Shown here: one piece after another, positions 11,950 through 53,122 of the stretch | How positions within the stretch are numbered: the stretch's first letter is position 1 | Layout of the letters: each line of letters begins with the position of its first letter | Assembly (NCBI GenBank): GCA_047638115.1 | Contig: JBLJBB010000048.1 | Span: 8,606 to 72,605 of the forward strand | Reading direction: 5' to 3' | DNA from: Bacteroidales bacterium | GTDB lineage: Bacteria > Bacteroidota > Bacteroidia > Bacteroidales > WCHB1-69 | DNA length: 64,000 nt | The notes under the pieces: generated by a model | What the model was told of the DNA's origin: nothing | The model's input: the letters and a program-made list of their open reading frames with translations, nothing else | Database searches by the model: none | Translations under genes and position numbers: made by a program

Positions 11950-12070
11950 GGGTGTGCCCCCTCGCTTCGCTCGGGGTCGGGCTTGTTCCGGGGTTCGCTT
12001 CGCTTCCGTGCTCCATTCCGCTTCGCTCCATATCGCACCGGCTTCGCCGCCCTCCATATCCCTCACACGA
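11950..12070 (+). repeat. G+C-rich interspersed element, copy R1 (short form)
   Basis: Shares gtcgggcttgttccggggttcgcttcgct and the ...gccctcca(t/c)atccct(c/a)a... 3' block with copies at 33354, 34229(-) and 52945(-). Embedded in a 667-bp AT-rich intergenic region. Confidence 0.8.
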
Positions 12071-32217: not shown

Positions 32218-33300
32218 TTATTGAACAATTAATTTGGTTGATTTTATCCCTTCAAGATATTGAAAATGAACAATATAAACTCCTTTTGGAAGTTCGGAAA
32301 TATCTACCTTTGATGGATGATTCGTAACATCTACACTTTTTAATTTATTTCCTAAAATATCAAGTATGGAGAGTGTAATATTCTGATATTCAATTAAATT
32401 AATGTCGTAAAATAGATTTAATGTGGTCGTTGCAGGATTGGTAAAGGTGATTTTGGGGATCATATTTTCTGATTCTTGAATTGAAGATGGGAGAAACAGA
32501 TTCACGGAATCGGCTCCATATATTTTCCCAACCAATTCAGGATAATCAATAAATGGATTTCTATTCCCTTGTTTTTCGTAAACAGCATTGTTCCGATTGA
32601 TCTCTTTTTGACTCACAGGATCAAGGGTGTGCCATTGAATCAATAGAGCAACTGCCCAAGGTTTTAATGAGCCATTGGTATACATTGAAGTGGTTGCTTG
32701 TCCTAAATTTTTATCCATGTAACACACAGACATATAAAACAAAGCTCTGGCAAAATCACCTTTGTAGTCATCGATAGGTTCAAAAACGGTACCTGTGTAT
32801 CCAGAAACGGCACTTGAACCCAATTTTGAACCATTATCACTTGTCCAAGAGGCACTATTAACATCTCCAAAAGGATAATTACTTCTTCTGTTGTTTACAT
32901 ATCCATCAGTAGGAACGAGATGAAACAGATCACTGTACATAGGTGATGCATCATTGAACCAACTGGCAGGCACACTATGTTCCCGATTATAGCAATCTCC
33001 TTCACCAGAGTAACTTCCACATTGATTAGAAACGAAAGTAAATTCATAAGGGGGTGTTTGGTTAGGAATATCAGAATACATATCCCAGACTTTACCATTT
33101 GGTTTCACATCTGTAGTTTGAAAAGCGGTCCATAATCCAGCATAAGAAATGGTAGTATGGCTCTTTATGATATTATATAAAGCGTATCTCAACGCATAAC
33201 CTTTCTTATTTTGAGCATTAGTGTAGTATCCAGCGGGGATCTGACCAAAGATGTAACATGCAGAAAAAAAGAGTATTAAAGCAAAAAATAGTTTTTTCAT
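32218..33300 (-). CDS. Secreted endonuclease I family nuclease with T9SS C-terminal sorting domain
   Basis: NREHSVPASWF and GNRNPFIDYPE (endonuclease I). CTD ...GVYIVHFQYLEGIKSTKLIVQ. Confidence 0.8.
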   Translation of the reverse strand: MKKLFFALILFFSACYIFGQIPAGYYTNAQNKKGYALRYALYNIIKSHTTISYAGLWTAFQTTDVKPNGKVWDMYSDIPNQTPPYEFTFVSNQCGSYSGEGDCYNREHSVPASWFNDASPMYSDLFHLVPTDGYVNNRRSNYPFGDVNSASWTSDNGSKLGSSAVSGYTGTVFEPIDDYKGDFARALFYMSVCYMDKNLGQATTSMYTNGSLKPWAVALLIQWHTLDPVSQKEINRNNAVYEKQGNRNPFIDYPELVGKIYGADSVNLFLPSSIQESENMIPKITFTNPATTTLNLFYDINLIEYQNITLSILDILGNKLKSVDVTNHPSKVDISELPKGVYIVHFQYLEGIKSTKLIVQ

Positions 33301-33353
33301 AAGTTGTTTTATTTAACCTGCAAAAATACAAAATAATTTGCTATTACTTTTTT

Positions 33354-33500
33354 GGGCATTCCGGCACCATCCATCCCACAGGCCAGCCCTGCTGCCGTCG
33401 GGCTTGTTCCGGGGTTCGCTTCGCTCCCGTACTTCGCTGCACTTCACTTCGTTCGTTCCAGCTCGTACCGCCTACGGCGCCCTCCACATCCCTAATGCAA
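33354..33500 (+). repeat. G+C-rich interspersed element, copy R2
   Basis: gggcattccggc...gccgtcgggcttgttccggggttcgcttcgctcccgt...ccgcctacggcgccctccacatccctaatgc. Alignable by eye with R1, R3(rc) and R4(rc). Confidence 0.85.
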
Positions 33501-33503
33501 AAG

Positions 33504-33698
33504 ATGTTAAGTTGCTCTTTTAATAAAACCTTAGAGAACCGCGAAGGATTTCTTCAGGTAAAAGGTGGAAAAGTTTGATGAAGTAACGGAAAACACTTTA
33601 ATGAAGTACAAAAATTTAATTCCAGAAGCTCAGTCAGTCATCATTAAAGGAGCAGCTCACATGACGATGCAAGATAATCCAGGAGAGAACAATGCAGC
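33504..33698 (+). repeat. 195-bp perfect direct repeat, left copy
   Basis: Base-for-base identical to 39031-39225, compared by eye over all lines. Confidence 0.9.
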
Positions 33699-33726
33699 AA
33701 TTTCATCTTTTCTAGTATTGGATTAA
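33504..33726 (+). pseudogene. Alpha/beta-hydrolase remnant, copy A (lacks start, carries the internal-deletion junction)
   Basis: 33504-33698 is identical to 39031-39225. The tail encodes ...IPEAQSVIIKGAAHMTMQDNPGENNAAISSFLVLD*. Confidence 0.8.
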
Positions 33727-34110
33727 AAAACTATATTAGAGATGGCGCTGCCACCCTCTCCAATTTGAATATGTTTCGTATCGAAGAGCCGATGCTAAGA
33801 AAAATGAAGAGTGAAAAATGTTTAGATTTTTTTTTAAATAAAAATTAATTCGTTTTCATTTGCGCATTAGAGACTAATAATTTTATTCTAAAGAGTTTTA
33901 ACCGCAAAGTTCGCAAAGAAATAAGCCATGAATTCAAGAATTAAAATTAGTATTTAAAATTTAGCAATTGTGCAAATTATTTTATAGTCTATCATTTGTG
34001 TGATAAAAATCGGCTTGGTTCTAAGAAAACAGAAATCGAATATTCAACAATTTGAATATTAAAACTAAAAAAAAACAAACAACATACAATTGATAGACCA
34101 TAATTCGAAG

Positions 34111-34141
34111 GACCACGGACTACGAACTACGGACTACGGAC
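34111..34141. repeat. Heptamer tandem array GAC(T/C)ACG x ~4.4
   Basis: gaccacg gactacg aactacg gactacg gac. The same unit recurs at 40707-40737. Confidence 0.85.
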
Positions 34142-34165
34142 ACAAAATTAACAAAATACAAAACT

Positions 34166-34193
34166 GATAGCCGATAGCTGACAGCTGAAAGCC
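34166..34193. repeat. Heptamer tandem array GA(T/C/A)AGC(C/T) x4
   Basis: gatagcc gatagct gacagct gaaagcc. Confidence 0.8.
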
Positions 34194-34228
34194 CTTTAGC
34201 CATTCGCCCTTAACCTTGCGCCTGCTTT

Positions 34229-34406
34229 GCGTTAGGGATTTGAAGGGCGCCGAAGGCGGTGCGAGCTGGAATGAGCGCCGCTTTTCAATTGGTGATTGGA
34301 TGATACTTGTTTAAGCGAAATGGAGCGAAGCACGGGAGCGAAGCGCACCCCGGAAAAGCCCGACGGCGGTGGGTGGGATTGTGGAAGGATGATCGCCGGA
34401 ACGCCC
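34229..34406 (-). repeat. G+C-rich interspersed element, copy R3 (inverted)
   Basis: The reverse complement reads gggcgttccggc...atcccacccaccgccgtcgggc...cgcttcgctcccgtgcttcgct...caccgccttcggcgcccttcaaatccctaacgc. Confidence 0.85.
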
Positions 34407-34425
34407 ATATAATAAAAAAAAAGAT

Positions 34426-34433
34426 TATTTTTG
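34426..34433 (+). promoter_or_regulatory. -7 box (TAnnTTTG) upstream of the 481-aa gene
   Basis: tatttttg, 35 nt upstream of the ATG at 34468. Confidence 0.45.
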
Positions 34434-34467: not shown

Positions 34468-35913
34468 ATGGCTAAAAAACAATCAATTCTGTACGAAAAG
34501 AATTCTAGTCCTGAAAGCTATATTAAGACTAGATCGAGAACCATTCCCATTTATGAAACATATATCAATTACGGATGGAAGGAAGATGGGTATGCATCAA
34601 TATTTATCTCACGAAAACATTCGAATGGAAACTTTACATTGGTTATATATAATGTTGATATTTTGTGTGTAGGTGTTCAGGACACTTATTATGCCTTTAA
34701 TATTACTGATTCTAAATATAGAGAGATCCTTGAAAAAAGAAGAAAAGACGTTGAACTAGAAAAAATCGAATATGTTTTAGCCCATAATATCATTTATGGA
34801 GCTGTTGAATATGCTGAAAGTCTGGGGATACCACAATACAAAGATTTTAATAGAATAACTAAATATTTCTTAGAAGAGGATTCAGAGGATATTGAACTTA
34901 TTGAAATAGAGTTTGGTCGTGATGGAAAACCTTTCTTTATTGGTTACGATTTTTACAACCCTATTCAGATTCAAAATATAATCAAACAACTTGAAAAATC
35001 AGTGGGTGTAGGTAATTTTGATTTTATGCTTGAAGCAGATTTTGATGAAGATGAAGAGTTGGAGGATGAAGAGAATGAAGATGTTGATGATGACGAGTAT
35101 GAAGAGATGGATGATGATGTGGATCAAGAAAAGATTAATGAAAAAAACGAGTATTATAAACAACTCACTCCTAATGAGCGGGCTGAATTGTTTTTAAATT
35201 TAATAAATCAAGAGGATGTCTCACCTCACAAAGATCATATGGAGAGTATTTTATTACTTACTAACACCATTTATGATTATGATCTAACAACTAAAGAACA
35301 GAAGGAATCCCTTATTTCAAAATGGAACCATGATTTGAATATTCAGATAGACGATGGTGTACTCGTTGAATCAATGCAATTGAGTCCAAATGATGACTTG
35401 GATCATTTTTTAGACATCGTAGATCTGATTACTGTTGAATTGGAATCGGAAGAGGAAAAAGTGAGTTCAAACGTAAAAAAATTGGTTAAGAAACATCTTG
35501 ATAATCCCTATTTCTGTTATTTTGATACAAAAATATCTGAAAAAGAGGGAGCTGGTTCAAGATATCACAATAAATTAAATAAATATTGTTCGCAGTTTCC
35601 TGATTATCCATTGCTAAAAATTGAACATTTTAGAGCACAATTTAGGAAAGGAATAAAACCAGATATTCAGGAACTATTACCAAGTAAAATATTTTATGGG
35701 AAGGAAGCGATCACATCCTTTGAAATGTATCAATATCTGTTAGTAAAAATGATTTCTGAGTGTCCGCCACATGAGTTTAATTCTTTAAGTGCCCTAGAGG
35801 AGTGGGTGTTATCATTGCCTCTTCAAGAAGAATATGTAGTGAAGTATTTGATGCTCAGTAAATTGCTAAAAATGGAATATTTACTAATCCATCTTGACCC
35901 CGAAGAAGAATAA
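34468..35913 (+). CDS. Hypothetical protein with a central poly-acidic linker
   Basis: 481 aa with an EADFDEDEELEDEENEDVDDDEYEEMDDDVD tract between two globular-looking halves. No motif recognised. Confidence 0.6.
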   Translation: MAKKQSILYEKNSSPESYIKTRSRTIPIYETYINYGWKEDGYASIFISRKHSNGNFTLVIYNVDILCVGVQDTYYAFNITDSKYREILEKRRKDVELEKIEYVLAHNIIYGAVEYAESLGIPQYKDFNRITKYFLEEDSEDIELIEIEFGRDGKPFFIGYDFYNPIQIQNIIKQLEKSVGVGNFDFMLEADFDEDEELEDEENEDVDDDEYEEMDDDVDQEKINEKNEYYKQLTPNERAELFLNLINQEDVSPHKDHMESILLLTNTIYDYDLTTKEQKESLISKWNHDLNIQIDDGVLVESMQLSPNDDLDHFLDIVDLITVELESEEEKVSSNVKKLVKKHLDNPYFCYFDTKISEKEGAGSRYHNKLNKYCSQFPDYPLLKIEHFRAQFRKGIKPDIQELLPSKIFYGKEAITSFEMYQYLLVKMISECPPHEFNSLSALEEWVLSLPLQEEYVVKYLMLSKLLKMEYLLIHLDPEEE

Positions 35914-38970: not shown

Positions 38971-39250
38971 ATGAAAAATCTGAAATTTCAAATCTTTAAA
39001 TTGTTTATTATGATTTCATTATTAGTTTCAATGTTAAGTTGCTCTTTTAATAAAACCTTAGAGAACCGCGAAGGATTTCTTCAGGTAAAAGGTGGAAAAG
39101 TTTGATGAAGTAACGGAAAACACTTTAATGAAGTACAAAAATTTAATTCCAGAAGCTCAGTCAGTCATCATTAAAGGAGCAGCTCACATGACGATGCAAG
39201 ATAATCCAGGAGAGAACAATGCAGCCATATCCTCTTTTATGGGTAAATAA
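38971..39250 (+). pseudogene. Alpha/beta-hydrolase (proline-iminopeptidase-like) pseudogene, copy B, with large internal deletion
   Basis: The ATG opens the lipoprotein-like MKNLKFQIFKLFIMISLLVSMLSCSFNKTLENREGFLQVKGGKV, then TGA. A different frame continues EVTENTLMKYKNLIPEAQSVIIKGAAHMTMQDNPGENNAAISSFMGK* (catalytic-His C-terminus). About 200 codons of core are missing. Confidence 0.8.
39031..39225 (+). repeat. 195-bp perfect direct repeat, right copy
   Basis: Identical to 33504-33698. Confidence 0.9.
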
Positions 39251-52944: not shown

Positions 52945-53122
52945 GCGTGAGGGATGCGAAAGGCGCCGAAGGCGGTGCGAACTGGAACGAGCGCCGTGAT
53001 GAATGATCCATGATGACGATCTTATCTTAAGCGTAGTGCAGTGAAGCACGGGAGCGAAGCGAACCCTGGAGCAAGCCCGACGGCGTGGGTGGGATTCGTG
53101 TGTCGGGAAAGCCGGCACGCCC
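52945..53122 (-). repeat. G+C-rich interspersed element, copy R4 (inverted)
   Basis: The reverse complement reads gggcgtgccggc...atcccacccacgccgtcgggcttgctccagggttcgcttcgctcccgtgcttcactgca...caccgccttcggcgcctttcgcatccctcacgc. Confidence 0.85.

Follow-up and report, generated by a model that had tools for sequence, protein, structure and literature searches.

The repeat described here is closest in its properties to the REP, BIME and REPIN sequences of Proteobacteria, which are moved by RAYT, a Y1 HUH transposase. These are high-copy, extragenic, chromosomal, G+C-rich and fold-forming sequences that plasmids lack and viral contigs nearly lack, that often occur as inverted doublets, and whose orientation is independent of genes. 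The present repeat resembles them on these points, tentatively so for the doublets: its four closest pairs are 5′-outward, but most copies are solo. However, REPs are single imperfect palindromes of 20-40 nt with a 5′ GTAG, whereas the present repeat is 84-181 nt long, contains eight helices and begins with 5′ GGGC; its copies are neither short palindromes nor headed by GTAG. REPs are also usually species-specific, whereas the core of this repeat is common to several phyla, and the repeat can, unlike REPs, bracket kilobases of cargo.

Other systems are similar in part. Integron attC sites, including the Vibrio VCRs, likewise conserve structure over sequence, fold as DNA on one strand, as is proposed here, vary in length at the centre and lie beside accessory cassettes. 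However, attC sites carry RYYYAAC/GTTRRRY boxes, run in one direction and have an integrase adjacent, whereas here the closing helix varies freely (GCGTG, GCATG, GCGGC), and the dispersed, inverted copies have no integrase nearby. In the pdif modules of Acinetobacter plasmids, inverse sites bound toxin-antitoxin or resistance modules, and the copies studied here alternate likewise (R2+, R3-, R5+, R4-); pdif sites are 28-bp XerC/D sites on plasmids, whereas these repeats are structured, 84-181 nt long and chromosomal. BOX, Correia and ERIC-type repeats are modular, fold-forming, intergenic and multi-copy, as is the repeat here, but they do not extend beyond a genus, they possess long terminal repeats or a known transposase partner, and a core common to several phyla is missing. 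A further likeness is to d(GCGAAGC) mini-hairpins and G4-type single-strand initiation signals: the strand complementary to the written one has C(GNA)G triloops, a GCGAAGC core and side-by-side hairpins, and one subfamily lies just upstream of ssb in a putative conjugative element. High copy number in chromosomes is not a known feature of single-strand initiation signals. Heptanucleotide tandem repeats, for which the examples given in PMC4679880 include the STRR of cyanobacteria, TAACTGA repeats and long simple sequence repeats (Mrazek 2007, as cited there), are matched by the heptamer arrays found here in their period of 7, several unrelated units, intergenic position and strain-variable copy number (PMC4679880), but the latter differ in being tied to a G+C-rich structured element.

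The window is the whole stretch of DNA analysed, 64 kb in length. A covariance model (CM) built from 20 related copies was used to place copies of the repeat in it; loci compared from other genomes carry numbers with an L. R1, R2, R3 and R4 belong to one repeat family under this model, while R5 matches the type-A model at its ends only. The copies and the relatives of R5 are as follows:

11950-12068, + strand: R1, a short type-A copy with P1 GUGUG/CACAC, CM 90.7 bits
33354-33498, + strand: R2, a degenerate type-A structured repeat, CM 152.3 bits over the full model
34229-34406, - strand: R3, a full-length type-A structured repeat with helices P1-P6 all present, CM 178.4 bits
40818-41028, + strand: R5, a type-B element with the outer frame of type A (P1, P2, 3′ CCTAACGC) and a different interior
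52945-53122, - strand: R4, a full-length type-A repeat, CM 189.6 bits
L038:2682-2870, L028:4635-4814, L025:3148-3328 and L068:860-1036: type-B relatives of R5

The first-pass annotation had picked out R2 and R3 by eye as an inverted pair, and their matches at 152 and 178 bits establish both as real copies of the repeat. Its limits for R3 are exact, while R2 ends at 33498 under the model and not at 33500; its by-eye consensus agrees with the covariance-model consensus, and the T-rich 5′ flank and A-rich 3′ flank that it described are real for the window copies. G+C content peaks at 0.52-0.58 over R2 and R3 (33.35 and 34.3 kb) against a background of about 0.30. The CCCTAAYGC 3′ ends of the two copies (CCCTAATGC and CCCTAACGC) face inward, as had been seen, with 730 bp between them (33499-34228), and a like geometry recurs in R5/R4, L025, L038, L068 and L089. 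R2 is degenerate in that its P5 apex is shortened from about 45 to 9 nt and it is without the usual 3′ mini-hairpin and array tail. Identity between R2 and R3 is 81%, against 95.6% between R2 and L082, a copy in the closed metagenomic chromosome OW818690.1; judged by sequence, R2 and R3 are separate sub-lineages and not sister copies. ORFs lying over the elements (33338-33523 and 34232-34408) were rejected as spurious, since copies vary in length between 84 and 181 nt, their indels are not multiples of three and their substitutions are paired.

Type-B elements share with type A the frame GGGCRTTCC, P2, GTCGG ... CCCTAAYGC and have a conserved interior of their own that contains GGCTTCAAGTCCGC. 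In pairs they are usually the left arm, with type A on the right, as in L038, L068 and R5/R4. Outside the R2/R3 pair, TATTTTTGCA occurs at 33322-33329 (-) and 34425-34432 (+), 19-25 nt beyond the 5′ ends of the elements, for both genes pointing outward; we take it to fit the Bacteroidetes -7 promoter box TAnnTTTG. The product of the gene to the left of R2 (32218-33300) is an Endonuclease_1 protein that ends in a type IX secretion tail, which confirms that the host belongs to Bacteroidota. The 481-aa ORF adjoining R3 (34468-35913) has no Pfam match and contains an acidic repeat of 24-nt period at 35043-35129.

Beyond the window, the core TCCNGGGTNCGCTTCGCTNCCGT was scanned in one genome per species, which gave at least 98 matches; the first 98 were examined, and about 90 of these loci were confirmed by the covariance model. 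Among the matches listed, the confirmed loci are mostly in Bacteroidota: Schleiferia has at least 25 copies and OW818690.1 at least 15, and Thermaurantimonas, Chitinophagaceae, Cyclobacteriaceae, Saprospiraceae, Pedobacter and Moheibacter are other carriers in that phylum. A few of the listed carriers belong to Planctomycetota (e.g., Limnoglobus roseus), Spirochaetota (Leptospira) and a Fibrobacter MAG. In metagenomes with the organism of the window, the depth of the core is about 60-140 times that of single-copy flanks, as a sum over all organisms in the sample. PLSDB plasmids gave no match to the repeat, and two of 2.9 million viral contigs contain it. The repeat is high-copy, extragenic and chromosomal, absent from plasmids and nearly absent from viral contigs. 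Rfam 15, where the first-pass annotation had proposed to look, does not contain the family: the elements, R5 and 18 loci have no match there at the gathering threshold or at E up to 10. Nothing relevant came up in the literature when its text was searched for the core sequence or for repeats and MITEs of Bacteroidetes.

One subfamily of 102 nt is near-identical across several genera of Chitinophagaceae (L001:6072-6173, L011, L030, L049, L060, L076, L092), where it sits between the gene of a 1069-aa protein and ssb plus a DUF932-like gene, the latter named from its translation. This ssb/DUF932 site looks like the leading region of a conjugative element.

The element is modular, with lengths from 84 nt in the smallest copy to 181 nt, and about 178 nt in the window's kind. 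Read from the 5′ end, GG is followed by the 5-bp closing helix P1 and, in some copies, a P2 hairpin; next come P3 (GGG/CCC), the 3-bp P3b, a UCC/UCC internal loop and the 3-bp P4. The invariant stretch GTNCGCTTCGCTNCC then leads to P5, which always begins with GT and finishes with AC, to an optional P6 hairpin and to the 3′ end. The whole is a branched fold of eight short helices and 31 base pairs, which was derived by hand and then tested on a MAFFT alignment of 20 copies made without regard to structure; default RNAalifold did not recover it. Standard pairs fill 96.9% of the pair cells in this alignment, 11 of the 31 pairs change on both sides, and a single cell has a one-sided change. The score for two-sided changes was reached by none of 500 shuffles, and slid controls give 0-1 such pairs. 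Among 101 model matches, 96.2% of cells are paired, all 31 pairs covary and 462 cells are compensated against 122 in shuffles, in an alignment that was made with the model and leans towards it. Both alignments bear out the earlier suggestion of a conserved secondary structure with compensatory changes. On neither strand does the fold exceed dinucleotide shuffles in stability (z 0.44 and -0.01); it is therefore kept by selection on pairing and not by G+C content. Helix P1 itself covaries (GCGTT/AACGC, GCATT/AATGC, GCGTG/CACGC, GCATG/CATGC, GCGGC/GCCGC), and what had been described as a weak terminal inverted repeat, TTTGGGCGT/ACGCAAA, proves to be this 5-bp closing helix and not a transposon terminus. 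Pairing between the upstream and downstream flanks beats shuffles in some copies (z to -4.9) and not in most, with values of -0.9 for R2 and -0.3 for R3.

Two copies (L089:2800-2900; L081) carry insertions of about 100-110 nt exactly at the tip of the P2 hairpin, and it seems that DNA is inserted at hairpin tips on several levels of the nesting. In the window's subfamily, three or four G3 tracts, e.g., GGGTTGGGTTGTGGGTGGG, lie in the P2 loop of the G-rich strand; these are absent from the Schleiferia subfamily. Such a loop could possibly form a G-quadruplex. It is found at these places:

34350-34400 of the window, + strand, and L002, L007, L086: P2 loops with G3 tracts

Wobble pairs and loops bear on whether the fold forms in DNA or RNA, and on which strand. 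Transcribed RNA normally accepts G.U many times more often than A.C. Among 2579 pair cells, 32 hold G.U and 30 hold A.C, so wobble is not favoured on either strand and the preference general to structured RNAs is absent. Of the triloops closed by C-G, 85 are TNC on the written strand and 4 are GNA; of the tetraloops there, 20 are TYNC and 1 is GNRA. The GNA and GNRA loops therefore lie on the complementary strand. The core CGCTTCGC is the complement of GCGAAGC, which in the complementary-strand core is presumably an unusually stable DNA mini-hairpin. Of the two strands, the complementary one has the more stable fold in 95 of 98 copies. The written strand is the locally C-rich strand in 51 cases against 25 (non-independent copies, 8-kb flanks), a bias that puts the G-rich strand, the one that would fold, on the presumed template of the lagging strand. 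With respect to genes, copies are oriented almost at random. No recurrent neighbour gene was found within 3 kb of 77 copies, where clustering gave spurious ORFs and the one ssb/DUF932 context. We think that the repeat, when single-stranded, folds as DNA on the G-rich strand complementary to the earlier consensus, and a DNA-level, REP-like element is somewhat favoured over an RNA.

Several features count against this DNA reading. Helices of 3-5 bp with about 30 unpaired bases conserved across phyla are RNA-like, a hairpin and T-run that could end a transcript lie downstream of many copies of the window's subfamily, and copies occur at low depth in metatranscriptome contigs (unstranded Logan contigs). 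Among the genes near the copies, moreover, no cognate enzyme was found. The element might accordingly be a gene, or part of a processed transcript, for a structured RNA of a new class, such as a small RNA, a ribozyme or a protein-binding RNA; R2 and R3 would then be two such genes, and their inverted arrangement would have no meaning of its own. Strong covariation across all eight helices, unpaired stretches conserved from Bacteroidota to Planctomycetota, Spirochaetota and Fibrobacter, and the GNRA and GNA loops of the complementary strand would suit an RNA, as would the hairpin with T-run and the copies in metatranscriptome contigs. However, the strand with the RNA-like loops has the hairpin and T-run on its 5′ and not its 3′ side, position relative to genes is inconsistent, and tens of copies per genome are indicated by the depth of the core, a sum that includes other organisms in the sample. 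R2, moreover, is without the P5 apex and hairpin, Rfam gives no match, and G.U is not favoured over A.C on either strand. A structured RNA is on balance rather unlikely. The DNA-level reading is followed below.

The DNA between R2 and R3 comprises the following features, listed with the second copy of the duplicated fragment:

33504-33711, + strand: hydrolase-pseudogene fragment copy A, 208 bp, 99% identical to 39031-39238
39031-39238, + strand: hydrolase-pseudogene fragment copy B, which retains the gene's own start at 38972
33712-34109: A+T-rich filler of G+C 0.22-0.28, with a short strain-variable tandem containing CGCAAAG at about 33903-33918
34110-34141: heptamer array of GGACTAC, 4.6 units, TRF score 50
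34166-34193: imperfect heptamer array of GAYAGCY, four units, read from the sequence and below TRF 30, with a similar array after the L034 copy
34191-34222, - strand: third, imperfect heptamer array of AAGGGCG/AATGGCT/AAAGGGC, which adjoins the 3′ end of R3 and has a homologous tail in L034 and L025

Copy A begins 5 nt past the last base of R2, in place of R2's normal 3′ tail, so that a rearrangement joint lies 5 nt from the inner end of R2. Its frame is weakly like the extreme C-terminus of alpha/beta-hydrolases (best PDB matches E 0.14-1.6), and a Pfam scan of the fragment gave no match. The hydrolase remnant of the first-pass annotation accordingly stands as a 99% duplicate, while its hydrolase label comes down to weak C-terminal matches. 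The patch, described there as without a credible ORF, indeed contains no ORF of 60 aa or more. Both heptamer arrays named there are present, one found by TRF and one by eye, and the third had been overlooked. Period-7 arrays of at least four copies were found by TRF within the 64 kb beside R3, R5 and R4 only. Tails matching the three arrays follow the L034 and L025 copies; the arrays belong to R3 and not to the patch. The present content of the R2-R3 slot would then be a converted piece of a hydrolase pseudogene 5.5 kb away, A+T-rich filler and the array tail of R3.

R1, R2 and R3 are present in all four metagenome strains compared, and no empty site for any of them was seen in these four metagenomes, which counts against mobility at this time scale. 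The GGACTAC array is one unit shorter at 34119 in runs X2 and X7, and a 22-nt tandem insertion follows 33902 in runs X7 and X25; the loss of an array unit and the tandem insertion fit the slippage-prone behaviour of heptanucleotide simple repeats (PMC4679880). In runs X2 and X4, a near-single-copy contig joins 34418, 12 nt outside the 5′ end of R3, to 38935 in the hydrolase promoter region. This joint has six extra bases (TCCTCT) and skips the 4.5-kb block of ORF481, two-component, PepSY and BOF genes, and it may be either an allele or a paralogous place. In run X2, the first 380 bases of the 481-aa ORF are absent or too divergent to place. The joints 33499>33922 and 33923>35921 were set aside, as their sides of 21-22 nt look like paralogues.

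Most copies of the repeat are solo. All four pairs less than 1 kb apart (R2/R3, L038, L068, L089) have their 5′ ends outward, as do the L025 and R5/R4 pairs; counted over all neighbouring pairs, the 8 inverted against 4-5 tandem ones make no significant difference. The arms of the L038 pair have 41 of 45 outer bases in common together with 9 flanking bases, and the L025 pair encloses an RHS-type toxin tail and a neighbouring ORF. Elsewhere, 5′-outward pairs enclose toxin-antitoxin or defence genes. Heptamer arrays stand as inverted blocks on both sides of many copies, e.g., L094, L082 and the spacers of the imuB-dnaE2 operon. The filling of such a site was compared in the imuB-dnaE2 spacer of related Cyclobacteriaceae at four loci:

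L105:4995-5145: an inverted heptamer-array pair alone
L102:4990-5150: the arrays with a 21-nt element remnant, GGGCGTGTCCCACCCGGCCGC; the ImuB of this locus is 94% identical to that of L089
L089:2690-4100: array, type-A element (+), mazE and a PemK-type toxin gene (mazEF), type-A element (-), inverted array
L104:4860-6700: array, frame element with another interior, the toxin-antitoxin pair of L089, parDE, type-A element (-), inverted array

The spacer is a hotspot: in this series a nested palindrome has the cargo in its middle, and close relatives differ in what it holds. R2/R3 is without the outer arrays found in other pairs, which counts against reading it as a slot.

Two other accounts of the pair have to be weighed against a slot. 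In one, R2 and R3 are chance neighbours, two solo repeats in a long decaying intergenic region, and inverted pairs are what is seen because direct repeats around dispensable DNA delete each other. The different sub-lineages of the two copies (81% alike, with R2 95.6% like L082), the lack of outer arrays and of a target duplication at R2/R3, the 8 inverted and 4-5 tandem pairs overall and the absence of visible function in the patch all accord with this account, which nevertheless leaves the 5′-outward geometry of four out of four pairs under 1 kb to a chance of about 0.25 to the fourth power (in a post hoc test). It also sits poorly with the imuB-dnaE2 series, in which cargo lies exactly between such a pair and inside an operon. 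Chance neighbourhood is unlikely on this evidence. In the other account, R2, the patch and R3 make up a non-autonomous DNA transposon of the classical type, either a MITE or a composite; the elements would serve as its terminal inverted repeats, and a DDE transposase would move it. Although the inverted, 5′-outward geometry and the agreement of the L038 arms at 41 of 45 outer bases plus 9 flanking bases would fit, a check of the borders for such a transposon found no target-site duplication at R2, at R3 or around the whole pair; the flanks ACTTTTTT and ATATAATA are not duplicated. Each element offers just its 5-bp closing helix, the arms are 81% alike, and the majority of copies are solo. In addition, the helices inside the element covary, which terminal repeats do not need, 77 copies have no transposase nearby, and a match among PLSDB plasmids is absent. 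A transposon of this kind is disfavoured and highly improbable.

R2/R3 looks like a decayed "gene slot", and not a transposon or a proven RNA gene. The account that we prefer, though tentatively and at somewhat less than even confidence, is that R2 and R3 are old, independent copies of a chromosomal non-coding fold repeat that is REP/BIME/REPIN-like in DNA, and that they bound a slot filled with debris. Copies with their 5′ ends outward make up the two arms of a nested palindrome, frequently with inverted heptamer arrays around it, and comparison of related genomes shows that accessory DNA is gained and lost at its centre. The repeat itself may have spread through a trans-acting single-strand DNA enzyme or through breakage and repair at hairpin tips. 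A broader proposal, which is speculative and unlikely, is that frame elements (type A, type B and others) and inverted heptamer arrays together make up a recombinase-free gene-capture platform of Bacteroidota and neighbouring phyla. The nested palindrome would fold on the lagging-strand template, and its tip would be cut and repaired; foreign or nearby DNA would then be copied into the centre, such as toxin-antitoxin pairs, restriction and CBASS genes, toxin tails or, as in R2/R3, a piece of a pseudogene.

With 31 covarying pairs across several phyla, and with wobble and loop statistics that speak against RNA, the family offers a clean case for method development and shows that covariation by itself is no proof of an RNA gene. 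If the repeats mark accessory-gene slots and help to create them, they would provide a simple sequence handle for finding defence and toxin-antitoxin islands in Bacteroidota chromosomes. If true, this would also add to integrons and REPINs a second case in which gene flux is organised by folded DNA.
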